The position numbers and the translations under genes were made by a program. Shown piece after piece: positions 1 to 15,883 of a DNA stretch of 32,000 nt. The number at the start of each line of letters is the position of its first letter. Within the stretch, counting starts at the first letter, position 1. The stretch is from Flavobacteriaceae bacterium. GTDB taxonomy: Bacteria; Bacteroidota; Bacteroidia; Flavobacteriales; Flavobacteriaceae. Below the pieces are notes generated by a model. It ran no database searches. It saw only the letters and a program-made list of their open reading frames with translations, and was not told the origin of the DNA. The stretch is from NCBI GenBank assembly GCA_965224465.1, contig OZ245049.1:4470001-4502000 (forward strand), in the 5' to 3' direction.

Positions 1-267
1 TCTAAGCAAATAAAAAATCAACTCCTAGATTTAGAATTTTTAAATAATGATTTAGAAGTAGAAGAAGTTATTATAAAAATTAATAAGGTACTACAAGAAT
101 TCAATATTTTACTAATTATTATTGATATAGATAGTGATAGTTATCTTTTAAATAGGATCGAATTTGATAAAAAAGAAAGAGTTTTAGAGTTAGTTTCCTT
201 TTTAGGTTACGGTAAAATTAAGATATATCGTAACAAAAAGAAGAGCCGTTTTTTATTAGACGAATAA
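1..267 (+). CDS. 3' end of an immunity-like gene whose 5' end lies upstream of the window; near-identical paralogue of the last 88 codons of ORF 3147..3701
   Basis: Frame 1 reads SKQIKNQLLDLEF...KKKSRFLLDE then TAA at 265-267. DNA 1-267 equals 3435-3701 except one synonymous mismatch (63 vs 3497). Confidence 0.6.
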   Translation, partial: SKQIKNQLLDLEFLNNDLEVEEVIIKINKVLQEFNILLIIIDIDSDSYLLNRIEFDKKERVLELVSFLGYGKIKIYRNKKKSRFLLDE

Positions 268-327
268 CGGATTACAAGCAGTTCTTTGAAATACAGAAGT
301 AAATACCCTTTATGATTATAGCCAAGA
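1..327 (+). repeat. Left copy of a direct repeat of at least 327 bp (partner 3435..3761); probably continues upstream of the window
   Basis: By-eye alignment at offset 3434 gives 326/327 identical bases. Identity ends at 328/3762, just after ...tatagccaaga. Confidence 0.9.
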
Positions 328-405
328 TAGTGACGAAGAAGCATTGTTTAAAGGTGTAGCCTTAGGTTTTTTGTTTTTAGGAGCTGGGAAAGTTGTTGAG
401 AAAGG
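285..405 (+). repeat. Cassette-junction homology block, copy A (5' end of orphan toxin module)
   Basis: 121 bp matches 1765..1885 with one mismatch (385). After an in-frame TGA (287-289) it encodes NTEVNTLYDYSQDSDEEALFKGVALGFLFLGAGKVVEKG. Confidence 0.9.
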
Positions 406-838
406 GTTTAGGGCACTTAAAAACAGTAAAGCCATTGTCGAAGTAACAGAACAGGTTACTAAGAAAATAAGTAAAAGGCTACAGTTTTTAGGAAGAACAC
501 CTGGGAAATCCTCTAAAACAGGCAGAGAAGTTTTTGAAAGAATGTTAAACGGAAAACCTCCTACTGCAAGACTTGAGGACGATTTTGGAAATGTAACTAA
601 AGAGTTTTGGGATTCTGATAATAAGGTATGGAGGGATGTTATGGAAGCAGATATGGGGCATATTGAGGATGCCGTTTCGTATTGGAATAACACAGGAAGA
701 TACCTAGGGGCAAAATCTACAGAGGTACGTAAGTGGATGTTGGATTCAGATAATTATGTTTATGAGTATTTTAGAACGAATAGATCAAAAGGCGCAATAT
801 TAGGAAAAACAACAACTTATTTACCTCCAATTAATTAA
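344..838 (+). CDS. Orphan polymorphic-toxin C-terminal module, HNH/EndoVII-fold nuclease (GH-E-like)
   Basis: The frame is open from 290 with no in-frame ATG; the track start at 344 is TTG. The conserved junction is followed by GRTPGKSSKTGREVFERM ... DMGHIEDAVSYWNNTG ... NYVYEYFRTNRSKG, which fits my recollection of the GH-E family (PF14410) G-H...E...N pattern. Confidence 0.6.
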   Translation: MFKGVALGFLFLGAGKVVEKGFRALKNSKAIVEVTEQVTKKISKRLQFLGRTPGKSSKTGREVFERMLNGKPPTARLEDDFGNVTKEFWDSDNKVWRDVMEADMGHIEDAVSYWNNTGRYLGAKSTEVRKWMLDSDNYVYEYFRTNRSKGAILGKTTTYLPPIN

Positions 839-854
839 TAAGAAAAAACAAAAA

Positions 855-1295
855 ATGGCAATATTAGAAGCAATTATTTATGATGAGATTATAGTAATAG
901 GAAAAAAATCTGTAGAATCAATAAAAAAAGGAGATTTAAATAACTTCATTAAGTTTTCGGAATTAGCTTGGAATAAGTTTCCTGAGCCAAAAGAAAACTG
1001 GAATCAAACGTATAATTTTTGTAAAATGGTTTTTAAGCACTTGATAAATAGCAGTTTACTGTGTCAAGCTGAGGAGTGGCTAAACAGAATGGTTCTAAAT
1101 AACAACAAATTACACCTTTTTGATGTAGATATAGATTTCAATATTGGGAAATTGCATTTTGAAATGAAAGATTATACTAGAGCATTGGAAAAATGGAATT
1201 ATGTAGTAAAAGAAGCTGGTTATAGATATTTTGAAAGAGAAAATTCAAAATACAAAGATTTTTATCTAAATCCTGAAAAATACACAAATGAATGA
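855..1295 (+). CDS. Immunity-like protein, helical/TPR-like, paralogue of the next ORF
   Basis: Lies 17 bp after the toxin stop. Shares a motif pattern with ORF 1288..1746 (AWNKFPEPKENW vs ALNLLPIPKTNW; C-terminal GYRYFERENSKYKDFY vs GEDIFKDEDPKFRKSI). Confidence 0.5.
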   Translation: MAILEAIIYDEIIVIGKKSVESIKKGDLNNFIKFSELAWNKFPEPKENWNQTYNFCKMVFKHLINSSLLCQAEEWLNRMVLNNNKLHLFDVDIDFNIGKLHFEMKDYTRALEKWNYVVKEAGYRYFERENSKYKDFYLNPEKYTNE

Positions 1296-1746
1296 ATTAA
1301 ATAACGGTCTTTATTTAACAGTAGAAGAACTTAGCGAAGAAGGCAATGACTTATTCGAAAAAGAGCAATTTTTAGATGCCTTAAAGAAATATGAACAAGC
1401 ATTAAATTTACTTCCTATTCCAAAAACAAACTGGGAAGCAAGCACATGGCTTTATACGAGCATAGCAGATGTGTATTTTTCAATTAATGATTTAGAAATA
1501 GCCAAAAACAATTATTACAATGCTCTTAATTGCCCAGAAGGTATGGGCAACGCATATATTCATTTTAGTTTAGGTCAAGTTTTATTTCTACTAGGAGAGA
1601 TTGATAAGTCCAGACAATCATTATTGCGTAGCTATATGTTAGAAGGGGAGGATATATTTAAAGATGAAGACCCAAAATTTAGAAAAAGTATTGAAAATTA
1701 TTTAAAACCTCCGCCAAAAAAATCACGTTTTTTATTAGATGATTAA
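1288..1746 (+). CDS. Immunity-like TPR-type protein ending in KKSRFLLDD
   Basis: Overlaps the previous ORF by 8 bp. TPR-like helices (FLDALKKYEQALNLLP, LEIAKNNYYNALNC). The C-terminal tail is shared with ORF 3147..3701. Confidence 0.5.
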   Translation: MNELNNGLYLTVEELSEEGNDLFEKEQFLDALKKYEQALNLLPIPKTNWEASTWLYTSIADVYFSINDLEIAKNNYYNALNCPEGMGNAYIHFSLGQVLFLLGEIDKSRQSLLRSYMLEGEDIFKDEDPKFRKSIENYLKPPPKKSRFLLDD

Positions 1747-1764
1747 TTAAGGTAGTATAGTATT

Positions 1765-1885
1765 TTTGAAATACAGAAGTAAATACCCTTTATGATTATA
1801 GCCAAGATAGTGACGAAGAAGCATTGTTTAAAGGTGTAGCCTTAGGTTTTTTGTTTTTAGGAGCAGGGAAAGTTGTTGAGAAAGG
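1765..1885 (+). repeat. Cassette-junction homology block, copy B
   Basis: 120/121 identical to 285..405. Preceded by in-frame TGA at 1767-1769. Confidence 0.9.
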
Positions 1886-2381
1886 ACTTAAATCATTAAA
1901 ATTTACAGATCAAGTTCTTGATGTTGCTAATGCGACAAACAAACAAAAAGGTAATTTTGGAGAGATAAAAGCAGCTGCTAACCTGTCAAAAAATAAGAAG
2001 TTAAAAAGTGCAGGGTATGACCTGACAAGAATTGGTGATAAAGCCCCAACAGGATTTAATAATACCATTAAAAAAGGAATTGACGGTTTGTATGAAAACG
2101 CAACTCCACCACCCAAGTTTGTAATAGATGAAGCTAAGTTTAATACCGCTCAACTTGGTAAAACCAAAGATGGCAAGCAGATGAGTGATGGATGGTTGTT
2201 AGGAGAAAAAACAGGAAATAATAGGCTAATAGATCAAGTAGGTGATGTAAAAGCTGATGAAATAATGGAAGCACTAGAAAATGGAGAAGTGGAAAAAATT
2301 ATAAGCCGTGTTGACGTAAATGGGAATGTAGTTAGTAAACAATTAAATAGTGCAGGTAATATTATAGGTAATTGGCCATAA
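1824..2381 (+). CDS. Orphan polymorphic-toxin C-terminal module, restriction-endonuclease-fold (PD-(D/E)xK) nuclease, PoNe/Tox-REase-like
   Basis: The frame is open from 1770 with no ATG. After the junction come GNFGEIKA ... GIDGLY ... FVIDEAKF (an E...D...ExK arrangement) and then QLGKTKDGKQMSDGWL. Confidence 0.6.
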   Translation: MFKGVALGFLFLGAGKVVEKGLKSLKFTDQVLDVANATNKQKGNFGEIKAAANLSKNKKLKSAGYDLTRIGDKAPTGFNNTIKKGIDGLYENATPPPKFVIDEAKFNTAQLGKTKDGKQMSDGWLLGEKTGNNRLIDQVGDVKADEIMEALENGEVEKIISRVDVNGNVVSKQLNSAGNIIGNWP

Positions 2382-2394
2382 CTAATATATAAAT

Positions 2395-3141
2395 ATGAAA
2401 TTAAGAGATGTATTAAATACAGAAGAAGGATATCAAGAAATAATAGATAAAAAAGATCGATTTATTAATTCTAGGTTTGATAAAATAAAAAAACTAAAAA
2501 AAGATGAAATTGATGGGATTCAACAATATCCTAAGCCTAATTATGACATTATTATAAGTTCCAAAAAAAGCATTCTAACTTTTTATCGTGAAATACTTGA
2601 GACTAAATATTCAGTAGGAGAAGAATTGTCTGTAATTAAACAGTATTATTTAGATGTTATTAACTTTATAAATGATTCTAAAACTCATTCAGGTTATGCA
2701 AATATTTTAAGATTAATTTCTATGGGGATTATGTTTGAAATAAATGAAGATGAGTTTAAGATACTAATTGAATTAGTAGAGAGGTATTTAAAGAAAACAA
2801 AAGATGAAGATTTTTTAATTGATTTTTTAATTAATTTCTATAAACCGGATTGGATACAATCCAATACTTTTTTAATAAATATACCTTATAAAAACATTAA
2901 TGGTATTATAGAATTATCAAAAAAGAGTAAGATAGAAGCATCAGTGAAATTAAATACATATATATCAAAATGTTGGTACAGAGGTATTATTGAAGTCGAA
3001 ACTCATAAAAGCAAGTGGAATATTCATACAGGTTATTGGAGTTGGGAAGCAGGTGCAATAGCAAAAATCCTAAATTTAGATGATAGTAGTTTAAAAGATC
3101 AACAATACTACCCTTATGATATGGTACATTTTAAAGATTAA
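2395..3141 (+). CDS. Immunity protein, PoNi/DUF1911-like
   Basis: Lies 13 bp after the toxin stop. The C-terminal GYWSWEAGAIAKILNLDDSSLKDQQYYPYD resembles the conserved DUF1910/DUF1911 (PoNi) C-terminus as I recall it. Confidence 0.5.
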   Translation: MKLRDVLNTEEGYQEIIDKKDRFINSRFDKIKKLKKDEIDGIQQYPKPNYDIIISSKKSILTFYREILETKYSVGEELSVIKQYYLDVINFINDSKTHSGYANILRLISMGIMFEINEDEFKILIELVERYLKKTKDEDFLIDFLINFYKPDWIQSNTFLINIPYKNINGIIELSKKSKIEASVKLNTYISKCWYRGIIEVETHKSKWNIHTGYWSWEAGAIAKILNLDDSSLKDQQYYPYDMVHFKD

Positions 3142-3146
3142 TAATA

Positions 3147-3701
3147 ATGTGTTACATTTTAGAACTATCTTATTTATTAGTGAATAAGGATCAGAAAGAT
3201 CAAATAAACATTCAAAAAGAAGTAAAACTATCTGTCAATAAACCTAAAGAATACTTTTCCTTATTTGCAAGTGATTTAGCAGAAAGAGGTATTGAGAAGC
3301 CAATTGTTGAATTGCCTTGGTTTGCAATGATTAATGGATTGTATCGTGAGGGGTTTCTACAAGAATTAGATTGGAAATCTTATCCTGAAGATTTTGTAGA
3401 AGCGACTTTAGCGTTAATTAAATGTCATTCAAATTCTAAGCAAATAAAAAATCAACTCCTAGATTTAGAATTTTTAAATAATGATTTAGAAGTAGAGGAA
3501 GTTATTATAAAAATTAATAAGGTACTACAAGAATTCAATATTTTACTAATTATTATTGATATAGATAGTGATAGTTATCTTTTAAATAGGATCGAATTTG
3601 ATAAAAAAGAAAGAGTTTTAGAGTTAGTTTCCTTTTTAGGTTACGGTAAAATTAAGATATATCGTAACAAAAAGAAGAGCCGTTTTTTATTAGACGAATA
3701 A
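3147..3701 (+). CDS. Second immunity-like protein of cassette B; C-terminal half duplicated at 1..267
   Basis: 184-aa ORF 5 bp after the previous stop, ending KKKSRFLLDE. No family recognised with confidence. Confidence 0.45.
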   Translation: MCYILELSYLLVNKDQKDQINIQKEVKLSVNKPKEYFSLFASDLAERGIEKPIVELPWFAMINGLYREGFLQELDWKSYPEDFVEATLALIKCHSNSKQIKNQLLDLEFLNNDLEVEEVIIKINKVLQEFNILLIIIDIDSDSYLLNRIEFDKKERVLELVSFLGYGKIKIYRNKKKSRFLLDE

Positions 3702-3761
3702 CGGATTACAAGCAGTTCTTTGAAATACAGAAGTAAATACCCTTTATGATTATAGCCAAGA
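3435..3761 (+). repeat. Right copy of the 327-bp direct repeat
   Basis: See 1..327. Confidence 0.9.
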
Positions 3762-3795
3762 CGACAAGACTAATAAATACATTTCGGTTGTGTAA
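3724..3795 (+). pseudogene. Truncated third junction copy: toxin-less stub marking the end of the array
   Basis: After TGA (3721-3723) it reads NTEVNTLYDYSQD, then diverges to DKTNKYISVV-stop. Only 43 bp (3719-3761) of the junction block is retained. Confidence 0.6.
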
Positions 3796-3820
3796 TTTAA
3801 ACTCTGTCTGCTTGTTTTTT

Positions 3821-3924
3821 TAGCTAGACGAAAAATGGATGGATAGCCCTGCTATCGTTCTGTTTTTCAACAACGCTAGTACATAAAATAAACTATTTAT
3901 ATCGGTTATTTTGGATTGTAATGG
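3821..3924 (+). repeat. Intergenic repeat family, copy 1 (contains an imperfect 18-bp-arm hairpin at 3830-3868)
   Basis: tagctagacgaaaaatggatggatagc-cct-gctatcgttctgtttttcaacaacgctag...ttttggattgtaatgg. The same element occurs at 16215, 26203 and 26314, all in the same orientation. Confidence 0.85.
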
Positions 3925-3969: not shown

Positions 3970-6900
3970 TTAAGCAATTACGCTATGCTTCTTGAAATGC
4001 TCCGCCTGTTCAAAAATTTCTCGGTATACTTCATCTCTATCTACAGGAGGATAGCCATTTTCTCCTAAGAGAAGAATAAGATCCACTTTTAGTGCTGCTT
4101 TGATGTCGGCTCTATTGTTCCAATCGGTGTATTGGGCTTTATCGTCTACCACTTTTTTTACATGCCTGGCTAGTACTATTAATTTATCTTCAGGATAATC
4201 AAAATCATATTTATGAGCTAACTGTTTTAGAATGTCGTAAAAGGCTTTCTCTTCAAAATCAATTCCTAATTCGTCTCCTGCTACAAAAGCTTGTTTGATT
4301 TGTAGTACTAAGGTGGTTAGACTTTCTGCCATATCTTCATACACCTCCGAATTTAAAATATCTGAATCCTTACGTTCGTTGTATTTTTCTACCAAACTTT
4401 GGAATTGTTTTGTGAAATCTACTCCCTGCATTTTGTTTACACTTTTAATGTCTGCAATTGCTTTGAGTAGCAGTTGCTGTAGGAGTTTGATTTTTGTATT
4501 TGGTAGTTTTATTTTATTAATCTTAGCTAAATAGTCTTCATCAAATATATCAATCTGGGTTTCGTTTTCGTCTCCAAGTTTAAAAATTTCATGTACACCA
4601 TCGCTTTGCAAAGCATCTTTTATCATTTCTCGCACCTTCGCATTCATTTGTGATGAGTCAGGAGCGTTCCCTTTTGTTAGCTTGAATACAATAGATCGTA
4701 CGGCTAAATAATAATGAATATAATCGCGTTGTTCTCCATCAAAGGCTTCGCTTCCTGCACAGATATCATAAGCAGCTTTTAATCGTTTTACGAGGTGCAT
4801 AAATCGCTTTTCAAGTCCCAAGGTAGCCTGTACAAATTCGGCTGATTTATTCAAACACTGTAACTGCTCCAAGGAAGAGCTATTGAAATAATCGGTATTA
4901 TCAAAGGTGTGAAATATCCTACTTAAAATATCCAAGTGATCTTTTACCACCACTACAGACTGTGCAATATCCTCAAAATTTTGTGAATCCGCTTGGTTAT
5001 ACATTGCCAAAGCTAAATTCATAGCCTTTTTAATCCCAATATAATCCACGACCAAGCCTTTATTTTTACCTTTAAACTTTCTATTTACACGAGAAATAGT
5101 TTGAATAAGATTGTGTTTTTGCAAAGGCTTGTAAATATAAATAGTGTCCAAAAACGGTACATCAAAACCAGTCAACCACATATCTACAACAATCGCGATT
5201 TTAAAATTTGATTTTCCTTTTTTAAATTGTTTCGCCAATTCTTTACGATACTCCTTATTCCCTAAGAGCTTGTACATTTCCTTAGGATCATCTTTACCAC
5301 GGGTCATAATCATTTTTACCCGCTCGATTGCCTTGATTTCCTTTTGCTCTTTTTCAGAAAGTGTTACGCCTTCTTCTGCAACCAACACCTCGCCCCATTC
5401 AGGTTTTAAAAGTAGTATTTGTTGATGTAATTCATAACCAATAGTACGATTTGAACATACAAACATTGCCTTTCCTATCACGGTAGCACCTTCGGATACT
5501 CGTTTTACATAATGTTTTACAAAGTCACTAGCAATAGATTTTACCACATCAGGATCGCCCAAAATGGCGTTCATATTCCCCATGGCTTTTTTACTTTCTT
5601 CTACTTGATAATCACTGGCACCATCTGTTTCGCATTGTTCGTAGTATTGCTCTATCTCAGCAAGCTTACTATTATCCAAAACCACTTTTGCAGCACGTCC
5701 TTCATAGACGATACGAACCGTAATTTCATCCTCTACGGATTCCGTCATAGTATAGGCATCCATAATTTCTCCAAACACATCCAAGGTGGCATCAATAGGT
5801 GTTCCTGTAAACCCAACATAGGTAGCATTAGGTAAAGAATCGTGTAGGTATTTTGCAAAACCATAGGTTTTTTCTATACCGGTGTCTGTTACTTTTATTT
5901 TTTGATCTAAGTTTATTTGACTTCGGTGTGCCTCATCAGAAATACAAATAACATTGTTTCTATCGGTCAGTAATTCTATATCCTCGTTAAACTTGTGAAT
6001 GGTAGTTAGAAAAACTCCTCCAGACTGTCTGCCCTGGAGTAAGTCTCGTAAATGAGAACGACTCTCTACCGAAACAATAGTAGCATCGCCAACATAGCCT
6101 TTGGCATTGGTAAATTCTTCTGACAACTGACTGTCTAAATCCGTTCTGTCAGTAATAAGAATAATGGTAGGACTTTTAAAATAGGTACTACGCATTAACA
6201 AACGTGTTAAAAACAACATAGTAAAACTTTTACCACAACCTGTTGCTCCAAAGTAAGTCCCCCCCTTACCATCACCCTCTGGTTTTTGATGCAACTTTAT
6301 ATTTTTAAATAATTTATTGGCTGCATAAAACTGGGGATAACGACACAGAATTTTAATTTCCTTATTACCCGAATCGGGCATATATATAAAGTGATGGATA
6401 ATTTGCCGTAAACTATCCGTATTCAACATACCTTTTACTAAAGTGAACAGACTTTCAATACCATCTACCTCTTTCTTTTCTTCAAATAACTGCCTGTCGG
6501 ATGCCGACCTCCATGCATAGTAAAACTCAAATGGGGCAAAAAAAGATCCTGCCTTGGTATTTACACCATCAGAAATCACACAAAAGGCATTGTACTTAAA
6601 CAATTCAGGAATATCACGTCGGTAGCGTGTGGTTATCTGTGTATAGGCATCTTGGATGGTTACATTTTCGTTTATAGCCGTTTTAAACTCAAACACCACC
6701 AATGGGATTCCATTAGTATAGATGATACCGTCTGGTATACGCCCTTCTGGATGATGCTGTACAATGTTCAATTGGTTTACAAAGCGATAGGTATTCTTGT
6801 CTTTTTCGCTAAAATCTATCAAGCGAATAAAAACATCTTTTTTGGTATGATCTTCACGCTTCAATACAAAACCATTAGAAATCCAATCCATGAGTTGCTT

Positions 6901-7134
6901 ATTAGAATCGTATAAATCCGAGCTAGGAAGCACTTCTAGTTTTCGAACAATCGATGCTATTTCTGCCTTAGAAAGTTCTACATACTGTGAATGTAAGTAG
7001 TTTTTTAAATCTTCTTTTATCAAGACTTCATCATTCTTTCGATTGATTTCATCTCCTCTTAAGTGTTTAATTCCTTCGGAATCTAACAGGGCTATAAAGG
7101 CATTTTCTAATTGTGCTTCGTTGAATTTGTTCAT
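3970..7134 (-). CDS. hsdR: Type I restriction enzyme, R subunit
   Basis: 1054 aa with helicase motifs GATGCGKSFTM (Walker A), ISDEAHRSQ (DEAH) and QTISRVNR (motif VI). Lies in a locus with hsdM and hsdS. Confidence 0.93.
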   Translation of the reverse strand: MNKFNEAQLENAFIALLDSEGIKHLRGDEINRKNDEVLIKEDLKNYLHSQYVELSKAEIASIVRKLEVLPSSDLYDSNKQLMDWISNGFVLKREDHTKKDVFIRLIDFSEKDKNTYRFVNQLNIVQHHPEGRIPDGIIYTNGIPLVVFEFKTAINENVTIQDAYTQITTRYRRDIPELFKYNAFCVISDGVNTKAGSFFAPFEFYYAWRSASDRQLFEEKKEVDGIESLFTLVKGMLNTDSLRQIIHHFIYMPDSGNKEIKILCRYPQFYAANKLFKNIKLHQKPEGDGKGGTYFGATGCGKSFTMLFLTRLLMRSTYFKSPTIILITDRTDLDSQLSEEFTNAKGYVGDATIVSVESRSHLRDLLQGRQSGGVFLTTIHKFNEDIELLTDRNNVICISDEAHRSQINLDQKIKVTDTGIEKTYGFAKYLHDSLPNATYVGFTGTPIDATLDVFGEIMDAYTMTESVEDEITVRIVYEGRAAKVVLDNSKLAEIEQYYEQCETDGASDYQVEESKKAMGNMNAILGDPDVVKSIASDFVKHYVKRVSEGATVIGKAMFVCSNRTIGYELHQQILLLKPEWGEVLVAEEGVTLSEKEQKEIKAIERVKMIMTRGKDDPKEMYKLLGNKEYRKELAKQFKKGKSNFKIAIVVDMWLTGFDVPFLDTIYIYKPLQKHNLIQTISRVNRKFKGKNKGLVVDYIGIKKAMNLALAMYNQADSQNFEDIAQSVVVVKDHLDILSRIFHTFDNTDYFNSSSLEQLQCLNKSAEFVQATLGLEKRFMHLVKRLKAAYDICAGSEAFDGEQRDYIHYYLAVRSIVFKLTKGNAPDSSQMNAKVREMIKDALQSDGVHEIFKLGDENETQIDIFDEDYLAKINKIKLPNTKIKLLQQLLLKAIADIKSVNKMQGVDFTKQFQSLVEKYNERKDSDILNSEVYEDMAESLTTLVLQIKQAFVAGDELGIDFEEKAFYDILKQLAHKYDFDYPEDKLIVLARHVKKVVDDKAQYTDWNNRADIKAALKVDLILLLGENGYPPVDRDEVYREIFEQAEHFKKHSVIA

Positions 7135-7153
7135 TTTAAGTTAAATTTATTAG

Positions 7154-7213
7154 ACTACTTATTGTACTACCTATTATACCACCTATTGTACTACCTATTA
7201 TACCACCCACTTA
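7154..7213. repeat. Tandem 12-bp repeat, 4 good units plus 1 degenerate, in the spacer upstream of hsdR
   Basis: actacttattgt / actacctattat / accacctattgt / actacctattat / accacccactta. Equivalently, a perfect 24-bp unit twice (7160-7207). Confidence 0.9.
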
Positions 7214-8542
7214 TTTTATTTCATTATCGCTAGTATTTGTAATAACCCAAATACCTCTAGTACCACCTGCTCTTTTAATAACTCCTTTGTTTTTTAACAA
7301 GCCTATATGTTCTTGTGCAGCAGATCTATTAATTTTTAGATGATCAGCAATTTGAGAAATAGAAACTTTAGGATTATTTACAATAAGCTTAAAAACCTCT
7401 TTTTGCCTGGCTGTTAAATCACTGACTTGTTCGGTAACATGGTCAGTGACTTGTACGGTGACTTGTTCGGTAGTTGGAAAAACAATGCGTAAAAAATTGT
7501 CAGAAAATTTAAAACAATCTTTATTATAAGCTGCTAACATTCTTGGCACACCCGAACCTAATTGCTCTACTAAATCTAAATCCTTAAAAATCCGTATCAG
7601 TTCTTTATTTCTAGGAATAGAAAATCCTTCAAAAAATTCTGATTCACTTAAACCTTCCACCAGAGACCCTGCCGATGTAATCTCTATTCTATCCTTAAAA
7701 ATTTCAAATTTTGGAGCTACTTCACGGCTAAAATCATTGTGTACAAAAGCATTTATTACAGCCTCACGCAATGCCATAGCATTCCATAAGCGATGTTCTA
7801 TGCGGTCCTTTTCTGTAATTTTAGCAAGCGTACGGTTTTCTATGGCTAACTTATCCAATACACTTTTACAGGCTTTAATTAAGGAGCAATACCCATACTC
7901 ATTGGTTTCTGTAAGAGCTACACGATCCGTACCTGCATATTTGGCTACCTTTATGGATATATTATTAATATCCGATAATAAATACCCTGCGTAATTCCAT
8001 TGATCATCTTCGTTTTTCAGCTCTAAATTAACAGCAAACTGCCCATTTAATGTCTTTTCTTTTTCTTGATAATAAATATGCAGCTGTTCAAAAGCTAAGG
8101 ATCGTTTGGGCGACAGTATTTTACTAATCGTGTTTCTGGTCCTGGAAGCATATAATGTATCAATAATACGTTGCGGCATAGGTTCGGATGCCGTTCCTAT
8201 CCGTACATAACAGCCCTTTTCAGACATTCCGTACTTCTTTTTGAAATACGGTTTTTCGCTACCACTAGCCACCGTTACTTTTACCAATTGTTTGCCCTCT
8301 TGCTCCATAAGCGAAATATCAAACAAGCCCATACAGGAGGGTTGGATATTGGTTTTTAAACGGTCTTTTATACGCAACATCACATCATCTACATCACTTA
8401 TTCCAACAAATACTCCGTGTTTGTTCACTCCAAAAATTACCACACCTCCTAGCTGATAGTTTAAAAAAGCAATCACTTCCTTTTCTAGGTCTATGTCCTT
8501 GGTGAGTATTTCTTTATATTCGATGCGATTGGTCTCTGTCAT
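7211..8542 (-). CDS. AlbA_2 (Schlafen-like) + HATPase_c_4 + C-terminal wHTH protein, often annotated as a RecG-like putative transcriptional regulator
   Basis: N-terminus IEYKE...EVIAFLNYQLGGVVIFGV (AlbA_2-like). Mid-region REAVINAFVHNDF...IEITSAGSL...IPRNKELIRIF...EQLGSGVPRM (HATPase_c_4-like). C-terminal HTH SISQIADHLKINRSAAQEHIGLLKNKGVI. Confidence 0.8.
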   Translation of the reverse strand: MTETNRIEYKEILTKDIDLEKEVIAFLNYQLGGVVIFGVNKHGVFVGISDVDDVMLRIKDRLKTNIQPSCMGLFDISLMEQEGKQLVKVTVASGSEKPYFKKKYGMSEKGCYVRIGTASEPMPQRIIDTLYASRTRNTISKILSPKRSLAFEQLHIYYQEKEKTLNGQFAVNLELKNEDDQWNYAGYLLSDINNISIKVAKYAGTDRVALTETNEYGYCSLIKACKSVLDKLAIENRTLAKITEKDRIEHRLWNAMALREAVINAFVHNDFSREVAPKFEIFKDRIEITSAGSLVEGLSESEFFEGFSIPRNKELIRIFKDLDLVEQLGSGVPRMLAAYNKDCFKFSDNFLRIVFPTTEQVTVQVTDHVTEQVSDLTARQKEVFKLIVNNPKVSISQIADHLKINRSAAQEHIGLLKNKGVIKRAGGTRGIWVITNTSDNEIK

Positions 8543-8566
8543 GGGGTAATTGTTAATACTTAATTA

Positions 8567-9721
8567 TTAATGGTTGATGACTCCTTTTTCCTCTTTTAGT
8601 AAAAGTACTATCTTTTCAACTAATGAAAAGAATTGATCTTCTTCTAATTTTGAAATTAAAAAATCTGTCAGATTATAAATCTCATCATCATTCAAAACAT
8701 ATGTTTTTGTAGCAAAATGAGCCCATTTTTTATTCTTATCTTGAGTGAAATTATTTACTAGATGTTTATTTTCTTCGGAAGACAATTTTAAATCGGCATA
8801 TTGTTCTTTATTGTTTAATGCCTTGTTTTGTAATTCAACAATTATCTTTAACTCTTTTATGGGAGTCAATAATCCAGCATATATAATCGTAAACATTATA
8901 TTAGGATTGCTCCTAGAAACAAAATAACGTAAAATCTTTTTTAAGTTCCCACTAGACTGATTAAGCGTAAACTCTTTATTATCTTTAGGAATAACTTCGT
9001 TTATTTGTTGCGTAATATGTTCCCTTGCTATTTCACTAATTTTAATGACACTGTTTATAGCTTTTTGATTTTTTATATAAAATTCAAAATCTTCTTTTTT
9101 CATCGTAGGAGTACTTAAATTATAAATGTTTTGTGCAAAATCCTTTAAGAAAACAATGTATTTATCCTTGGATTCTATCAAATAAGGACCGCTATTTCTC
9201 ATTACTTGTTGCATGAGTTGCTGATGGGTGATATTTATGAATTTCTCACTTCCCAACTTATGCGAATACATGACCGCTTTTAAAGAAAGTATCACACCTA
9301 TATATCCGTTTTCACACGCATTCTCTTTGACAATAGTTTTCCAATAATCTACTAAATCATTACCTTCGATATGATGCTTTACTTTATTTTCTATAATAAT
9401 GGCTTGTTGCGAATTTTCAAGTAGAAGATCTATTCTCCCGTTAGCTATCGTACTATATTCCGTATGTATTTTAAAGTTAGAAAAATCTTGCAGTCCTGTT
9501 TTCTTTTTCCCTAATTCGGAGGCAGCAATGAGCTCTATAAAACTTTTAATAAACAAATCCCCCAAACTATGTTCTTCATTTACATTAAAGAAAAAAGCAT
9601 AGATATTAGACAATACATTTTCGTAATGTGGCTGCTTGGCGATGCCTAAAAAAGTTAAGGGCTTTTTTTTAATAACAGGAATTTTATTTTCCGATAAAAA
9701 TTTCTCTAATAATGCTAACAT
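8567..9721 (-). CDS. PD-(D/E)xK nuclease superfamily protein (PDDEXK_4-like)
   Basis: HYENVLSNIYAFFFNVNEEHSLGDLF, then GRIDLLLENSQQAIIIENKVKH (D...ExK core). Confidence 0.65.
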   Translation of the reverse strand: MLALLEKFLSENKIPVIKKKPLTFLGIAKQPHYENVLSNIYAFFFNVNEEHSLGDLFIKSFIELIAASELGKKKTGLQDFSNFKIHTEYSTIANGRIDLLLENSQQAIIIENKVKHHIEGNDLVDYWKTIVKENACENGYIGVILSLKAVMYSHKLGSEKFINITHQQLMQQVMRNSGPYLIESKDKYIVFLKDFAQNIYNLSTPTMKKEDFEFYIKNQKAINSVIKISEIAREHITQQINEVIPKDNKEFTLNQSSGNLKKILRYFVSRSNPNIMFTIIYAGLLTPIKELKIIVELQNKALNNKEQYADLKLSSEENKHLVNNFTQDKNKKWAHFATKTYVLNDDEIYNLTDFLISKLEEDQFFSLVEKIVLLLKEEKGVINH

Positions 9722-9817
9722 GTTTATTTAATTTATAATTAATCATCAACCATTAATATTCCTCTTTCCTAATCTCCCCTTCCGCAAAATCTTGCACTAC
9801 AGATTGTATGGAATAAT

Positions 9818-10102
9818 TCACAAAACATTCAAACAACTTCCAATTTCTGTGCTTGGCCATTTGCTTTCATCGGTGCACCAACCGAATAGTATTTCTTCCA
9901 AAAGATATTCGAAATTTGCTTTTAAAAAAAGGATTGATTCCTCCGTACAATCATATTCTGGAATTAAATACACGGTGGATTCATCATGTTTATTAGAAGC
10001 GTCCTTATGTATAGGGTCTTCTGGAAATATGCTGTTTACCCAATCAAATAAGGCTTGTTTGGGCGTGATAATTAAAGCGGTTCTGTTTACGGATGCTAAC
10101 AT
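9818..10102 (-). CDS. Small conserved hypothetical protein, probably truncated by a 1-nt frameshift near 9855-9858
   Basis: 94-aa ORF co-oriented with its neighbours. The shifted frame stays open for a further 37 codons (KQMAKHRNWKLFECFVNYSIQSVVQDFAEGEIRKEEY) down to a stop at 9753. Confidence 0.45.
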   Translation of the reverse strand: MLASVNRTALIITPKQALFDWVNSIFPEDPIHKDASNKHDESTVYLIPEYDCTEESILFLKANFEYLLEEILFGWCTDESKWPSTEIGSCLNVL

Positions 10103-10128
10103 GTTTATCTAATTTATTTCATATATAA

Positions 10129-11139
10129 TTAACCCTTATTTTTTTCTAATCCTTTTACCATTTTATCAAAATCGGATACAATTTTCTGAGTTTTATTAAA
10201 CACATCATACTCGGTATGTGCTTTTTTTTCTGCTTGTTTTTTAGATTTTTTACCTAAACCTTCTAAAACCAAGTATTCATTAAAACTTAAAAATTTATTT
10301 ACACTCAAAGCCAATTGCTCCATGGTAAAGGTGTTTTCTCTTTCAATTAAACCTTCTATATAATCAAAGTACCCTGTAACTGTGCGTTCTAATTGTTTTA
10401 TCTCTTTTTCTTGCAAATAATTTTTAGCAACACTTGTGTCCGACTTAATAATACGACCCTCTGGTGCATTTTTCCAATTGGTTAAACCCATATTTTCTTG
10501 CCTACGATCCGCCTTTAAATAGATGATTTCTGCGGCTGTTTTACCTGTAATCGCAAAGTGGAATTTGTTTTGGATTGTTGCATAAAACCTTTTAGTTACA
10601 GATGAATTCTTATCATAATCAATGCTACACTCAGCAAAAATATCGGTTACTTGTTGGTAAATGCGTCTTTCACTTGCGCGAATAGAGCGAACCCTTTCTA
10701 GTAATTCTTTAAAATAATCTTTACCAAATAATGTTTTCCCTTGTTTTAAACGTTCATCATCTATGGTAAACCCCTTGATGATATACTCTTTTAACGTTTT
10801 TGTTGCCCAAATACGAAACTGAGTAGCTTTTGTAGAATTAACGCGGTACCCAACCGAAATAATAGCATCTAAATTGTAAAAAGTTACTAATTTGGTTTGA
10901 GTTTTCCCAGTAATAGCACCATGTTGAGTGGTTGTTTCCAATTTGGAAATAACCATCTCTTTTTTCAATTCTCCGCTTTCGAATATATTACGTAAATGTT
11001 TGCTAACCGCTGGCACACCAACAGAAAAAAGTTCCGCCATCGCTTTTTGTGTAAGCCAAACACTTTCCTCCATAAGTACTACATCTAAACGAATATCTCC
11101 GCCTGGAGCTGTGTATAATAAAAAATTAGTCTCTAACAT
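10129..11139 (-). CDS. rhuM: RhuM family (virulence protein RhuM-like) DNA-binding protein
   Basis: N-terminus LYTAPGGDIRLDVVLMEESVWLTQKAMAELF...VSKHLRNIF...YNLDAIISVGYRVNS..ATQFRIWAT is the characteristic RhuM pattern. This family is a frequent passenger in type I R-M loci. Confidence 0.8.
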   Translation of the reverse strand: MLETNFLLYTAPGGDIRLDVVLMEESVWLTQKAMAELFSVGVPAVSKHLRNIFESGELKKEMVISKLETTTQHGAITGKTQTKLVTFYNLDAIISVGYRVNSTKATQFRIWATKTLKEYIIKGFTIDDERLKQGKTLFGKDYFKELLERVRSIRASERRIYQQVTDIFAECSIDYDKNSSVTKRFYATIQNKFHFAITGKTAAEIIYLKADRRQENMGLTNWKNAPEGRIIKSDTSVAKNYLQEKEIKQLERTVTGYFDYIEGLIERENTFTMEQLALSVNKFLSFNEYLVLEGLGKKSKKQAEKKAHTEYDVFNKTQKIVSDFDKMVKGLEKNKG

Positions 11140-11233
11140 AGGTGTCTCTTATTCATTTATAATTAATATTACGCTTTCCTTTATGTGTTTGATACCTCCT
11201 AAATTTCTATATATATTCATGATGGTTTTTTTA

Positions 11234-11440
11234 TTATTTATTTCCCTTCTCCACCTCCAACATAGCAACTGGAACCGACAACTTACCCGAGATTAATTGA
11301 GGTAATAAAGTGTTGCGAAGTTTGGTGAGTGATTGATTTTTTTTTGTTTTTACAACTGAATATCTAAAATTTCTTTCATTCAACAGTCGCTCTAGTTTTA
11401 ATAGAATAGGTTTGTTACCTATCATATAAGTCACGCACAC
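11234..11440 (-). pseudogene. Remnant of an hsdS 3' end (last ~31 codons plus stop region)
   Basis: ...LTKLRNTLLPQLISGKLSVPVAMLEVEKGNK versus the intact HsdS C-terminus LTKLRDTLLPQLISGKLSVPDAMLEVEKEIN. DNA ~11248-11330 matches ~11666-11748 with about 6 mismatches. Confidence 0.7.
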
Positions 11441-11636
11441 ACCTATTTATGTAACCATTTAATCCAGTTCCGTTTCTCGCAAGACTTTTCATTTCCTCAA
11501 CATTATCCCTGCCAGCTCTAGTATAACTGTAGCTATAAATTCTAGAATTTCCACTAAATTTGACTGAAATGTTATCTAAGCCTATTTCATAAGCTTGTAC
11601 ACCAGAATTACCACTATTATTGCTATAAGTCTCCAT
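11415..11636 (-). CDS. KTSC domain-containing small protein
   Basis: 73 aa. AYEIGLDNISVKFSGNSRIYSYSYTRAGRDNVEEMKSLARNGTGLNGYINRCVR fits the KTSC (PF13619) pattern (..Y.....L.V.F..G..Y.Y......y..l.....G.y.N..i). Confidence 0.6.
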   Translation of the reverse strand: METYSNNSGNSGVQAYEIGLDNISVKFSGNSRIYSYSYTRAGRDNVEEMKSLARNGTGLNGYINRCVRDLYDR

Positions 11637-11650
11637 ATTATACTTTTTTC

Positions 11651-13009
11651 TTAATTAATTTCTTTCTCTACCTCCAACATAGCATCTGGCACCGACAACT
11701 TACCCGATATTAATTGAGGTAATAAAGTGTCGCGAAGTTTGGTTAGTTTACCAGAAAGAATATTGTTACTGTCCTTTTTAGAATTAAAATTTGATAGAGA
11801 ATTTTCAATTAAACATTGTCCACTCTTTGGTGGAACTAGAACTTCAACTTCTGATAAGCGTAATCTACTGAGTTCTGTTTGACCTGTACTTCCTTCTCCC
11901 ATAGCTTCAATATAATCTTCAATTGAAAACATTAAATATTGAAAAAAACTAGTTTCTAATATACTTTTATTTCCCCTTACAACTGTAACATGAGAATCTA
12001 CTATGGTAGGCTCATCTAAAGATAAAATAGTCGCAATTCTTCCTAATGTTCCAGTTCCTGTGGAATTAATTACAATATCTCCGATTTCCAGTAACCTTCC
12101 TTCTGTTTTTCTTTTGGTTGGATCATTCCTTCTGGCTAAAGAATAATTTACAATATGATTTCTAATACATTTTTGATTAAGAACTCTAATCCCTCCATCT
12201 TCAATATATTTTGGAGAAACACCTCTTCTTAATTCCACTGTAATATCTTTTAGCGGTTTTACTCCCCACCCTACAGGAATCCATTTCTCCAACACTTCAT
12301 TAAACACAAAGCTATCTGGAAACAGTTCATTAATTTCAGGTGTATTTTTCTTGGTAACTGCTAACCTTAGCCCTCCTTTTTTACGCAAAGGCTCTGGCAA
12401 GGCTTCTACATTTCCACCATTTTTTACCAAGAAATTATCTAATACAGGATCAAAATCTACAAACCAAGACTGAAACAAGGCTTGTGCCATGGCTTCTAAA
12501 CTTTCGTTCATCTTGCGGTTGAGTTCTATTTTTGCATCTAAATCGCCCAGTATTTTAGCTATTGCTTTTTGGGTTGGGAGGGGTGGTAGTTTGAATTTGT
12601 ATTGTTCAATTGCGTCTCTGTCCCCCCGAGGCATCTTTGTCCCTTTAGCTGTAGCTACGGTGTAATCTATAAAATCTTGCCCTGACAGAATGGAATACAA
12701 GAACTTAGGAGCTAATTTCCCTGAAGACCTAAATACTAATACATCATTAGAACATCCTCCATCGCGATCTGCGAACCAAACTTTTTTAAAATAAGTTCTA
12801 ATATTTGAAAAAAGGACATCGTTTTCTATATACGACCTAGCCGTAGTCGCAGAAGGTAATCCTGACGAAACTGATATCCCTCCAAGGTCAGGCATCATAT
12901 TTTCTGTTGAGATATAATTATCCAAACTAAGTTCTGACACTTTTATTTTCTTTGAAACAAACTCAATAACATCCCCCAAAACAACTTCTCTCCATCCACC
13001 ATTACTCAT
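11651..13009 (-). CDS. hsdS: Type I restriction-modification system, specificity subunit
   Basis: 452 aa with two target-recognition halves. They are separated by the conserved helix LPPLPTQKAIAKILGDLDAKIELNRKMNESLEAMAQALFQSWFVDFDP, and the protein ends with LRDTLLPQLISGKL. Overlaps hsdM by 8 bp. Confidence 0.9.
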   Translation of the reverse strand: MSNGGWREVVLGDVIEFVSKKIKVSELSLDNYISTENMMPDLGGISVSSGLPSATTARSYIENDVLFSNIRTYFKKVWFADRDGGCSNDVLVFRSSGKLAPKFLYSILSGQDFIDYTVATAKGTKMPRGDRDAIEQYKFKLPPLPTQKAIAKILGDLDAKIELNRKMNESLEAMAQALFQSWFVDFDPVLDNFLVKNGGNVEALPEPLRKKGGLRLAVTKKNTPEINELFPDSFVFNEVLEKWIPVGWGVKPLKDITVELRRGVSPKYIEDGGIRVLNQKCIRNHIVNYSLARRNDPTKRKTEGRLLEIGDIVINSTGTGTLGRIATILSLDEPTIVDSHVTVVRGNKSILETSFFQYLMFSIEDYIEAMGEGSTGQTELSRLRLSEVEVLVPPKSGQCLIENSLSNFNSKKDSNNILSGKLTKLRDTLLPQLISGKLSVPDAMLEVEKEIN

Positions 13010-14567
13010 AACCCAACATTTTTAAGTTAGTACGAATCGCCACATCCAAATCCTTAGCCTCCTCCATTTGAGTAAATAATAATTGGGTCAATGACCCCAT
13101 TTTGGTTTCAAAAGGAATACCATCGCCTTCTTCTTCGGCAACACCAACATAACGCCCAGGCGTTAATACAAAGTCATTTTTTTCTATTTCGGCTAAAGTG
13201 GCAGATTTACAATATCCTGCTATGTCTTCGTAAGTTCCGTCTTTACTTTCACCTCTCCAAGCGTGGTAGGTTCTGGTAATTTCGGCAAGGTCGTCTGTAG
13301 TTAGTTCTTTATGGGTACGGTCTACCATAGTTCCCATATTACGGGCATCTATAAATAAGGTTTCACCTTCTCTATTTCTATGGTTTCTGGTTTGGTCTTC
13401 AAATTGTTGTTCCTTCTTGTTCTTAGTCATAAACCATAAACAAACAGGAATTTGAGTGGTATAGAACAACTGCCCTGGTAAGGCAATCATACAATCTACC
13501 AAATCGTTTTCTAGCATTTGTTTACGGAGTTTTCCTTCACCCGAGGTATTGGAACTCATAGAACCATTTGCCAATACAAAACCAGCGGTTCCGTTTTCGG
13601 ACAATTTAGAAATCATGTTTAAAATCCACGCATAATTAGCATTACCTGTAGGTGGTGTATCGTAACCGTTCCATCTAGCATCGTCGGTTAATTCATCTTT
13701 TCCACGCCATTCCTTTTGGTTAAAGGGTGGGTTTGCCATGATATAATCGGCTTTTAAATCGGGATGTTGGTCTTTAAAAAACGTATCGGCAGGCACAGCA
13801 CCAAGGTTGGCAGAAATACCACGAATGGCTAAGTTCATTTTTGCCAGTTTGTAGGTCGTAGCCGTGTACTCTTGTCCATAAATAGAAATGTCTTTGGTGT
13901 TTCCCTTATGGTTTTGCACAAACTTAATAGACTGCACAAACATACCTCCCGAACCACAGGCAGGATCGTAAATTTTCCCTTTGTAAGGTTCTAGCATTTC
14001 GGCAATCAGGTTTACAATACATTTTGGGGTGTAGAATTCTCCACCACCTTTTCCCTCGGCAGAAGCAAATTTCCCTAAAAAGTATTCGTAAATACGCCCT
14101 ACAATATCGTTTTCCTTGTCGGCAATGGTATCAATATCGTTAATGGTATCCAATAAAGACGATAGCTTACTCGGATCTAAATTTAATCTCGAAAAATAAT
14201 TATCAGGTAAAGCTCCTTTTAAGCTTGGGTTGTTTTTTTCTATGGTGCTCAATGCCGTATCTATTTTTAATGCGATATCGGTTTGCTTGGCATTTTCTAT
14301 AATATATTCCCAACGAGATTCTGGCGAAAGGTAGAATACGTTTTTCATGGTATAGAACTCCACCATGTCTAGGTATTTATCTTTGCCTTCGGAGATGAGT
14401 TCTTGTTTTCGTTCTTCGAATTTATCGGAGGTAAATTTCAGGAATATCAATCCTAAAACTACGTGTTTGTATTCAGAACTTTCTACAGTTCCTCTTAATT
14501 TATTTGCGGAATCCCAAAGCGTTTCTTCGATAGATTTTGATTTTTTTGAGGTAATTTTTTTTGCCAT
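13002..14567 (-). CDS. hsdM: Type I restriction-modification system, N6-adenine DNA methyltransferase subunit
   Basis: HsdM_N-like N-terminus (LWDSANKLRG), motif I DPACGSGGMF and motif IV MANPPFNQKEW. Confidence 0.93.
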   Translation of the reverse strand: MAKKITSKKSKSIEETLWDSANKLRGTVESSEYKHVVLGLIFLKFTSDKFEERKQELISEGKDKYLDMVEFYTMKNVFYLSPESRWEYIIENAKQTDIALKIDTALSTIEKNNPSLKGALPDNYFSRLNLDPSKLSSLLDTINDIDTIADKENDIVGRIYEYFLGKFASAEGKGGGEFYTPKCIVNLIAEMLEPYKGKIYDPACGSGGMFVQSIKFVQNHKGNTKDISIYGQEYTATTYKLAKMNLAIRGISANLGAVPADTFFKDQHPDLKADYIMANPPFNQKEWRGKDELTDDARWNGYDTPPTGNANYAWILNMISKLSENGTAGFVLANGSMSSNTSGEGKLRKQMLENDLVDCMIALPGQLFYTTQIPVCLWFMTKNKKEQQFEDQTRNHRNREGETLFIDARNMGTMVDRTHKELTTDDLAEITRTYHAWRGESKDGTYEDIAGYCKSATLAEIEKNDFVLTPGRYVGVAEEEGDGIPFETKMGSLTQLLFTQMEEAKDLDVAIRTNLKMLGYE

Positions 14568-14792: not shown

Positions 14793-15883
14793 GGCTCAAC
14801 TTGTAAATAGCGTATTTATTTCGTAACTTACTGAAAAACAGAATCATTATGGATAATTCAGCTATTTTAAAATATTTTGACTGTCTAGATGTAACTAAGC
14901 AGGATATTTTGCTTAAAGAATTTCAGTCTCTTTGCAAATCAGGAAGTTATGTAGACATTATTAAAATGAGAGGGAATGCTTTAGATGACAGAAGGGGTGA
15001 ATGCCCTTACTGCAATGGCTATCACTATATAAAAGCAGGTGTTGATAAAAACAGCAGGCGTTATAAATGTAAAGATTGTAAACGTACTTTTACTGAATTT
15101 ACCGGCAGTTGGCTAGCTGGGATACACAAAAAGCAACGCATACCAGCCTTTTTAAAAACACTTGAATTGAATTTAAGTTTGGTTAAAACAGGAAAGGATC
15201 TTTCCATAGATCCAGGGACGGCATTTAGATGGCGTCATCGTTTTTTGTCTGCTATGTTTCAAGAAACCACAGGTTATTTCAAAGGAATCACCGAGAGTGA
15301 TGAGACCTTTTATTTACACAGTCAAAAAGGTAAAAAGTGTGTACATAGACCTCCCAGAAGTAGATCCGAAAAGAAAGGGGCAGGTATAACAAAAGAATAC
15401 GCAACGGTATTAACAACCCAAGATAGAGCAGAACTATGCGTGTCTAAATTTACAAATATGGGCAGAATTACCAAGAGTAATATAAAAAACACTATCGGAA
15501 GCATGGTAGATAATAGAACCATATTTTGTTCTGATGGACACCGTAGTTTTACAGGGTTTAGTAAGGATTTACATTTAGAGCATCATGTTTTAAACAGTAG
15601 TAAAAACCAACGAGTCAAAGGGACTTATCATATTCAGCACATCAATAGTTTGCATAGTAGGTTAAAGACATTTTGTAACGTGAAATTAAAAGGAGTATCC
15701 ACAAAATATCTTCAAAAATATTTAAATTGGCAAACAATTAAAGATTCATATCGTAAAGAATCAAATTGGGTAGTTACTGTCCTTAAGTACTCAATGAAAC
15801 GTTCAAATGCAATTAAAATATATAACAATATCCAAACTGATTATGACAAAATTTTTATAACAACGCTAAATGCTAGTTGAGCC
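14793..15883 (+). mobile_element. Complete IS1595-family insertion sequence (1091 bp) with 8-bp target-site duplication
   Basis: Imperfect terminal inverted repeats: GGCTCAACTTGTAAATAGCGTATTTAT (14793-) and the reverse complement of the right end GGCTCAACTAGCATTTAGCGTTGTTAT (21/27 match). The direct repeat ATATTCAT lies at 14785-14792 and 15884-15891. Confidence 0.85.
14849..15880 (+). CDS. IS1595-family (ISXO2-like DDE) transposase
   Basis: N-terminal zinc ribbon CPYCNGYHYIKAG...YKCKDCKRTF. Catalytic candidates SDETF, FCSDGHRSF and HINSLHSRLK. The stop codon lies inside the right inverted repeat. Confidence 0.85.
   Translation: MDNSAILKYFDCLDVTKQDILLKEFQSLCKSGSYVDIIKMRGNALDDRRGECPYCNGYHYIKAGVDKNSRRYKCKDCKRTFTEFTGSWLAGIHKKQRIPAFLKTLELNLSLVKTGKDLSIDPGTAFRWRHRFLSAMFQETTGYFKGITESDETFYLHSQKGKKCVHRPPRSRSEKKGAGITKEYATVLTTQDRAELCVSKFTNMGRITKSNIKNTIGSMVDNRTIFCSDGHRSFTGFSKDLHLEHHVLNSSKNQRVKGTYHIQHINSLHSRLKTFCNVKLKGVSTKYLQKYLNWQTIKDSYRKESNWVVTVLKYSMKRSNAIKIYNNIQTDYDKIFITTLNAS

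Follow-up and report, generated by a model that had tools for sequence, protein, structure and literature searches.

Rhs, CDI and MafB polymorphic toxin loci, together with the PAAR-Rhs "paar islands" of the type VI secretion system, subtype i (T6SSi), for example in Pantoea agglomerans (PMC9796082), combine a full-length gene with a variable toxin end and, downstream of it, start-less toxin ends that are accompanied by immunity genes and share a short homology at the junction. Some of these orphans are decaying. The same arrangement is found in the locus described here, which lies at the left end of a stretch of 32,000 nucleotides (the window; contig OZ245049.1, positions 4,470,001 to 4,502,000, of the Flavobacteriaceae bacterium assembly GCA_965224465.1). 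Positions 1-3761 of the window are very probably the distal part of an orphan toxin-immunity cassette array that goes with a DUF4280 effector family using the Bacteroidota type VI secretion system, subtype iii (T6SSiii).

The likeness to Rhs, CDI and MafB is one of architecture. Their delivery parts have YD, VENN or DPxGL-type motifs or FHA repeats, whereas the delivery part here is about 215 aa long, consists of DUF4280 and a hydrophobic region, and has none of these. In addition, the junction is itself predicted to form a membrane helix, the secretion system involved is the Bacteroidota T6SSiii, and each cassette has two accessory genes rather than one. An earlier interpretation made from the DNA letters alone (the sequence-only reading) had given the locus the architecture of Rhs/CDI/MafB-type orphan cassettes. 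The analogy stands, but membership was rejected because the defining domains are absent: no YD, VENN or MafB domain was found, and Pfam recognizes only DUF4280 in the delivery part.

Two further groups of effectors are similar. DUF4280 specialised effectors, such as Fte1 (Fjoh_3275) of F. johnsoniae (cited in PMC5014421) and the PoNe-DUF4280 proteins (PMC6688995), likewise join an N-terminal DUF4280 to a C-terminal toxin, are encoded near vgrG and T6SSiii genes and can carry a PoNe payload with its PoNi immunity protein. For such effectors, the papers searched gave no description of the long hydrophobic linker, the conserved 283-aa partner protein encoded upstream or the orphan arrays downstream that are seen here. 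The prePAAR and Tse6-type effectors of T6SSi (cited in PMC11883445) also place a spike-tip domain and hydrophobic helices ahead of a toxin that acts in the cytoplasm, with a small gene between vgrG and the effector. The proteins described here, in contrast, have no canonical PAAR domain and no associated gene for an Eag (DUF1795) chaperone; the prePAAR motif was not searched for.

In marine Flavobacteriaceae, whose effector biology has received little study, the stored-toxin-end strategy known from Rhs, CDI and MafB would extend to the small DUF4280 effectors that use the Bacteroidota T6SSiii. The general understanding of polymorphic toxins is unchanged. The junction peptide …DEEALFKxVALGFLFLGAGK… provides a search handle for new toxin-immunity pairs, several C-terminal domains of the family have no Pfam match, and the 283-aa partner and a KSRFLL tail shared by the immunity proteins are two testable unknowns.

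Junction repeats of the array

A repeat search and an alignment agree with the sequence-only reading in placing three copies of the junction on the plus strand, with starts at 285 (copy A), 1765 (copy B) and 3719 (copy C). Copies A (285-421) and B (1765-1901) are 94% identical over 137 nt; they are near-identical up to about position 409 and unrelated thereafter. The core common to all three copies is the first 43 nt, which is all that remains in the third (3719-3761). Repeats of such length and identity are far beyond chance. Each copy contains an in-frame TGA (287-289, 1767-1769 and 3721-3723), and in A and B an open frame begins directly after it (290-838 and 1770-2381). Both frames open with NTEVNTLYDYSQDSDEEALFKGVALGFLFLGAGKVVEKG, 39 residues in common, which cover the acidic loop and last hydrophobic helix of the delivery module described below, and then diverge. 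No ATG occurs between the stop and the toxin domain in either frame, the Met codons being confined to the toxin domains; public gene calls use the in-frame TTG codons at 344 and 1824 as starts (P0111, 164 aa, and P0112, 185 aa; P numbers denote proteins and L numbers loci). An immunity-like gene follows each toxin stop at a distance of 16 nt (838 to 855) or 13 nt (2381 to 2395). The earlier account of start-less frames behind a TGA, of a common opening followed by divergence, and of downstream genes within 13-17 bp is borne out in all these points.

Copy C had been described as 43 bp of junction with no toxin. Its length and the missing toxin were confirmed, but it is not an isolated remnant. 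Positions 1-327 recur exactly at 3435-3761 on the plus strand (327 bp, 100% identity), with a repeat period of 3434 bp. Therefore copies A and C also have the 3' half of a DUF6630 gene in common, copy C closes a long duplicate, and the first letters of the window already belong to a further cassette. The stub at 3719-3761 marks the truncated, toxin-less right end of the array, and the homology ends at 3761. At the left end, positions 1-267 (plus strand) hold the last 88 codons and the stop codon of a DUF6630 gene that is truncated at the edge of the window; this part is 100% identical to 3435-3701, and we read this fragment as the last gene of a further PoNe-type cassette upstream of the window.

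No terminator-like site was found between the cassettes, and one lies after the array at 3842-3856. To the right of the array the G+C content goes up, and the coding strand switches after about 3970, where hsdR begins. A non-coding stretch at 3812-3923, which includes the hairpin at 3842-3856, is 86% identical to positions 747-859 of L001, which in this metagenome relative lie between genes, some 6.5 kb upstream of vgrG; the stretch may represent an old flank or an intergenic element that is repeated.

The full-length effector family

The 44-residue junction stretch encoded by 290-421 was used as a phmmer query against 1.84 billion representative proteins, and it returned 21 matches. In about ten of them the junction lies at residues 165-225 of a protein of 329-518 aa; most of the others are shorter proteins with the junction nearer the N-terminus. 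A word-index search with the 41-aa junction had given no match, which was a false negative, as phmmer later matched. The orphan peptides NTEVNTLY and DYSQDSDE had no relative in the representative-genome contigs, a set that does not include the source species. A search with toxin B plus the junction also matched proteins through the junction alone.

The full-length proteins are compact effectors of about 335-390 aa from Flavobacteriaceae. Their N-terminal delivery module of about 215 aa is 65-81% identical among the members. It begins with DUF4280 at residues 1-105, a domain that is not encoded in the window itself and that Pfam detected with E values of 1e-13 to 5e-19 in all eight full-length proteins scanned. 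An Ala/Val/Gly-rich hydrophobic stretch (about 118-177), an acidic loop and a short hydrophobic segment (about 193-212) follow, and the hydrophobic region of about 90 aa is predicted to be enough for three or four membrane helices. We identify the junction, which matches no Pfam pre-toxin domain, with the acidic loop and the last putative hydrophobic helix of this module (…LYDYSQDxDEEALFKxVALGFLFLGAGKV…). The toxin domain starts right after "…EKG". Past this point the family members carry GH-E, HNH, NucA/NucB, PT-HINT with a GIY-YIG-like domain, Ntox46 or PoNe, and some C-terminal domains have no assignment.

The sequence-only reading had expected a large full-length gene containing the junction. 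Such a gene exists on the same contig (P0115) and in relatives; it is not large, at about 350 aa. Members outside the source genome are P0113, P0099, P0105 and P0117-P0135. In the papers searched we found no description of a compact family that combines DUF4280, a hydrophobic region and a toxin with a 283-aa partner and orphan arrays. A metagenome scan added seven short family loci and one further partial array (L016), with zero new KSRFLL tails.

Some genomes, such as that of Zobellia laminariae (L008, 10001-12702 and also 6709 and 16046), have two full-length members in tandem along with more distant DUF4280 paralogues, and Aequorivita (L007, 9571-10878) has a second vgrG right after its array.

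Copies in the source genome and a natural exchange

All window proteins are encoded on one contig of 5,241,564 bp, which also holds P0115, a full-length protein of 357 aa with DUF4280, the hydrophobic region, the junction and a variant of toxin A. The same contig encodes P0110, an orphan-length copy of this toxin A variant, as well as P0001, a 99% copy of toxin B, and P0002, an 80% variant of toxin B. Three near-identical paralogues of the tetratricopeptide repeat (TPR) protein and two DUF6630 paralogues (P0181 and P0182) are also present in this genome. Taken with the exact repeat at 3434 bp, these paralogues indicate recent unequal recombination, by which a unit of the GH-E and PoNe cassettes would have been amplified in tandem. 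The expected link between start-less toxin ends with immunity genes and a full-length gene of the same junction was thus recovered in P0115, P0113 and their relatives.

P0115 and P0113, the latter from a metagenome contig, agree at 211 of 214 N-terminal residues, and past "…EKG" they are unrelated. P0113 continues into a PoNe variant that in the source genome occurs only as an orphan (P0002). This pair reads as a clean natural toxin exchange at the junction between close relatives.

Orphans are also found elsewhere. Downstream of a full-length gene, L004, L006, L007 and L010 carry N-terminally truncated copies whose toxin frames are intact, with three orphan copies in L007 (Aequorivita) and two in L010 (Gangjinia), and L016 has partial copies. 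Their left breakpoints vary between genomes, a pattern compatible with homologous recombination at differing positions in the module; the L004 orphans, for example, begin at module residue ~95 and at "FFFLGAGK". The gene content of both cassettes, PoNe-PoNi-DUF6630 and GH-E-146-aa-TPR, is kept in related loci, and full-length genes lead the PoNe cassettes in L009 and L011.

The GH-E cassette

Orphan toxin module A (290-838, plus strand; TTG at 344) consists of the junction (290-406) and a nuclease domain (407-835). The domain scores 19.3 bits against the Pfam family GH-E (PF14410), for which the cut-off is 25. Of 32 homologues of toxin A, 26 matched GH-E at E ≤ 0.01 (best value 2.5e-6). The sources of several homologues name them GH-E or HNH/EndoVII, and the homologues form the C-termini of PT-HINT or Rhs proteins. 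Toxin A is 70-77% identical to the C-terminal domain of the full-length P0099 and to an orphan in L004, it contains a DMGH-IED motif, and its AlphaFold model has a mean predicted local distance difference test score (pLDDT) of 88. We assign toxin A as a divergent GH-E (HNH/EndoVII) nuclease, with the caveat that its own score is below the Pfam cut-off. The GH-E/HNH-like guess of the earlier reading thus agrees with the homologues, with a sub-threshold score for the window protein.

The gene at 855-1295 (plus strand) encodes a 146-aa protein, which is likely the cognate immunity protein of toxin A. Syntenic homologues stand directly after the same toxin in L002, L003 and L004. It has no Pfam family, only a weak TPR match, and it is alone in its 90% cluster. 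The next gene, at 1288-1746 (plus strand), encodes the TPR protein of the cassette (152 aa), which has TPR matches in Pfam, is syntenic in L002 and L004 and ends in a KKSRFLLDD tail. The cassette of toxin, 146-aa and TPR genes also occurs in L002-L004.

The window variant of the GH-E domain (407-838) and the variant in P0110 and P0115 are identical save for a patch, …ARLEDDFGNVTKEFWDSDNKVWRDVME… against …ARVKRIGKKEIKEFWDYDNQKWRNIKE…, and one later residue. The patch may mark a specificity determinant that varies together with the 146-aa immunity protein.

The PoNe cassette

Orphan toxin module B (1770-2381, plus strand) joins the junction (1770-1886) to a domain (1887-2378) of the PoNe family of PD-(D/E)xK DNases. 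It matches no Pfam model. It does match PDB entry 9waq_B, "VP14465", with E 8.3e-8, and it shows GIDGLYE...VIDEAKF, a D…(D/E)xK motif. The domain is 67-77% identical to the C-terminal domains of the full-length effectors in L001, L009 and L011. The next gene (2395-3141, plus strand) encodes a protein with PoNi_N and PoNi_C, formerly DUF1910 and DUF1911 (Pfam E 2.9e-20 and 4.9e-25), which also matches 9waq_A, the partner chain of the PoNe structure (E 4e-6). In the literature (PMC6688995), PoNe is a DNase that PoNi neutralises, and fusions of PoNe to DUF4280 are known. The two genes are best read as a PoNe DNase with its PoNi immunity protein, which narrows the earlier guess of a PD-(D/E)xK-like domain to a family. 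For both cassettes the families returned by the profile and structure-database searches were those of toxins and immunity proteins rather than housekeeping families.

The third gene of the cassette (3147-3701, plus strand) follows PoNi and encodes a DUF6630 protein (Pfam E 2.3e-24) with a KKSRFLLDE tail. As the order PoNe-PoNi-DUF6630 is kept behind full-length effectors both in L009 and in L011, we count DUF6630 as part of the PoNe cassette and not as the immunity gene of another toxin.

A 96-nt stretch in the 3' part of the PoNi gene (3007-3102) is 100% identical to positions 11720-11815 of L001, in the PoNi gene of this metagenome relative, while the rest of the protein is about 37% identical. 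This suggests that the PoNi gene is a mosaic that contains a recombination breakpoint.

Delivery route

Around P0113 the genes stand in the order vgrG (Phage_GPD and Phage_base_V), 283-aa protein, effector and PoNi. All ten loci that include upstream DNA (L001-L005 and L007-L011) show vgrG, 283-aa protein and effector as a triad. In L009 (Zobellia russellii) and L011, genes for TssN, a TssK-like protein, TssO, ClpV and TssE lie directly upstream. L010 (Gangjinia) has TssN, three Hcp (PF17642) genes and ClpV, and L005 and L012 have Hcp and a conserved protein of 619 aa. TssN and TssO are components found specifically in the T6SSiii of Bacteroidota (PMC13584744). DUF4280 is described as the PAAR-like tip of non-canonical forms of the type VI secretion system, including Fte1 of F. 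johnsoniae (PMC5014421). As T6SSiii genes are found near the effector in L009-L011 and DUF4280 is such a tip, the route that the sequence-only reading had left open between T6SSiii, the type IX secretion system and others points to T6SSiii. For the source genome we infer the same route from these gene neighbourhoods of related loci.

The 283-aa protein is encoded directly upstream of the effector, for example at 9160-10011 in L001, and likewise in L002-L005 and L007-L011. It has no Pfam family, and a sequence search of the PDB gave only a marginal TPR-like match (E 0.03). It may serve the hydrophobic region as a chaperone or adaptor.

Proposed function of the array and alternative explanations

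In the mechanism that we propose, the full-length effector of about 350 aa would sit with its DUF4280 PAAR-like domain on the VgrG spike, followed by the hydrophobic region and a variable C-terminal nuclease. The hydrophobic region would aid passage of the nuclease through the inner membrane of the prey, by analogy with Tse6-type effectors. The 283-aa protein would shield the helices in the producer, by analogy with the PAAR effectors bearing transmembrane domains and their Eag chaperones (PMC11883445). Since the orphans have neither a delivery module nor a start codon, modules A and B are most likely not deliverable on their own. Recombination of the junction in the full-length gene with an orphan junction would fuse a stored toxin end to the delivery module and so change the toxin that is fired, and recombination between orphan junctions would duplicate or delete cassettes. 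The immunity genes of the array would guard the cell when sister cells or neighbours deploy those toxins. Actual reuse of the orphans through recombination seems to us rather probable, a claim one step weaker than the identification of the array itself.

Several observations weigh against this picture. The GH-E score of toxin A in the window is sub-threshold, and a Foldseek search with its model returned nothing at E < 0.78, the top weak matches being the HNH nucleases Cap5, Gme and GVE2. The AlphaFold model of the full-length P0099, built from a 17-sequence alignment, has a pLDDT of 40.6 and is unusable for judging a membrane role. Zero recombinants between an orphan and the main gene were observed, so that the evidence for swapping is comparative only. 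All three junctions in the window have the same left breakpoint, which indicates that they arose by duplication of one orphan junction and not by three separate displacements. The homology available for an exchange also appears short. Compared with the closest full-length gene to hand (L001), the orphans are near-identical over ~60 nt, GACGAAGAAGCATTGTTTAAAGGTGTAGCCTTAGGTTTTTTGTTTTTAGGAGCAGGGAA, and about 70% identical further upstream; high homology over only ~60-75 nt (cassette B) would be short for efficient recombination. The P0115 protein is identical to toxin A for another ~54 residues past the junction. Finally, a position of the array directly downstream of P0115 or of a vgrG is conjectural, as is a T6SSiii in the source genome.

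One alternative is that the toxin ends are evolutionary debris that is never reused, and that selection maintains the immunity genes alone, for defence against toxins of neighbours, much as in islands of the orphan-immunity or AID type. Orphan immunity genes in arrays have been well documented (PMC9796082; PMC13402684), the orphans here have no start codons, and decay is visible in stub C and in the degenerate orphans of L006 and L010, which extend 28 and 19 codons past the junction. The toxin frames in the window, however, are intact over 143 and 164 codons, which may reflect recent origin only; the cassettes are near-identical duplicates; and one genome has as an orphan a toxin that a near-identical relative has in fused form. 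We regard the debris reading as unlikely, though a serious contender. It is less easy to accept that the orphans are small toxins expressed independently from the TTG codons at 344 and 1824, as proteins of 164 or 185 aa with one hydrophobic helix and a nuclease, which would serve as cargo effectors or, within the producing cell, as a toxin-antitoxin-like module. Public annotations call exactly P0111 and P0112, an ATG where the hydrophobic region begins (MSFWEIV…) has been retained by some orphans in L004 and L007, a toxin-antitoxin role of an orphan Rhs module has been reported (PMC7043789), and PMC9796082 allows for secretion of orphans as cargo. But TTG starts are set mechanically by gene callers, and the window orphans are without the PAAR-like domain and most of the hydrophobic region, both of which are kept in every full-length member. 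A sigma-70 promoter scan, ill-suited to Bacteroidota promoters, gave 17 sites against 22 expected, fewer than in shuffled sequences. We consider independent expression improbable.

A site-specific, integron-like system, in which a recombinase moves cassettes bounded by the tail and the junction, was also weighed. A short conserved block does precede each junction, and it recurs at cassette ends in two other genera. This block, however, is kept as a peptide with many synonymous codon differences rather than as a site in the DNA, neither the array nor its immediate flanks contain an integrase (the nearest mobile gene is the IS1595 transposase 11 kb off), and the left breakpoints of the orphans differ between genomes, as expected for homologous recombination. 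Such a system is hardly credible for this locus. Homologous recombination at the junction of a DUF4280 effector family is the reading that we prefer.

A C-terminal tail shared by the immunity-like proteins

The last gene before each junction ends in KKSRFLLD[DE] and the stop codon (241-267, 1720-1746 and 3675-3701, plus strand). The tail is KKSRFLLDE on DUF6630 at 241-267 and 3675-3701, and KKSRFLLDD on the TPR protein at 1720-1746. Across 204 kb of loci the motif K-S-R-F-L-[LI] occurs seven times against 0.18 expected, and all seven tails are on the array strand, 0-5 residues before the stop of an immunity-like open reading frame. The carriers are DUF6630 in the window (twice), the TPR protein in the window, two Aequorivita reading frames (L007, 5816 and 8986) and two Gangjinia reading frames (L010, 11596 and 14483). 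These proteins are otherwise unrelated. Homologues of the TPR and DUF6630 proteins in other genomes are without the tail, the TPR homologues ending 10-13 aa earlier.

The codons of the tail are synonymous variants (Ser AGC, TCA, AGT or TCT; Arg CGT, AGG or CGA; Leu TTA or TTG), which indicates that conservation is at the level of the peptide and not of the DNA. A role of the tail as a DNA recombination site was rejected on account of these synonymous differences.

A broader proposal would connect these features. The effectors would form an undescribed family of DUF4280, membrane-helix bundle and toxin, with the junction itself as the last membrane helix; the 283-aa partner would chaperone the helices; and the immunity proteins would share the KSRFLL peptide under selection, as a means of docking them to a common component such as the delivery module or the partner. 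We offer this combination only tentatively and hold it to be doubtful as a whole.

Other genes in the window

To the right of the array, a type I restriction-modification operon occupies 3970-14567 on the minus strand, with hsdM at 13002-14567, hsdS at 11651-13009 and hsdR at 3970-7134. Between hsdS and hsdR are genes for a RhuM-family protein (10129-11139), a PDDEXK_4 protein (8567-9721) and a Schlafen protein with AlbA_2, HATPase_c_4 and a winged helix-turn-helix (7211-8542). The IS1595 transposase is encoded at 14849-15880. A TonB-dependent receptor on the minus strand (23314-25965) is split into a CarbopepD_reg and Plug part at 24499-25965 and a barrel part at 23314-24429, and it is probably a frameshifted pseudogene.

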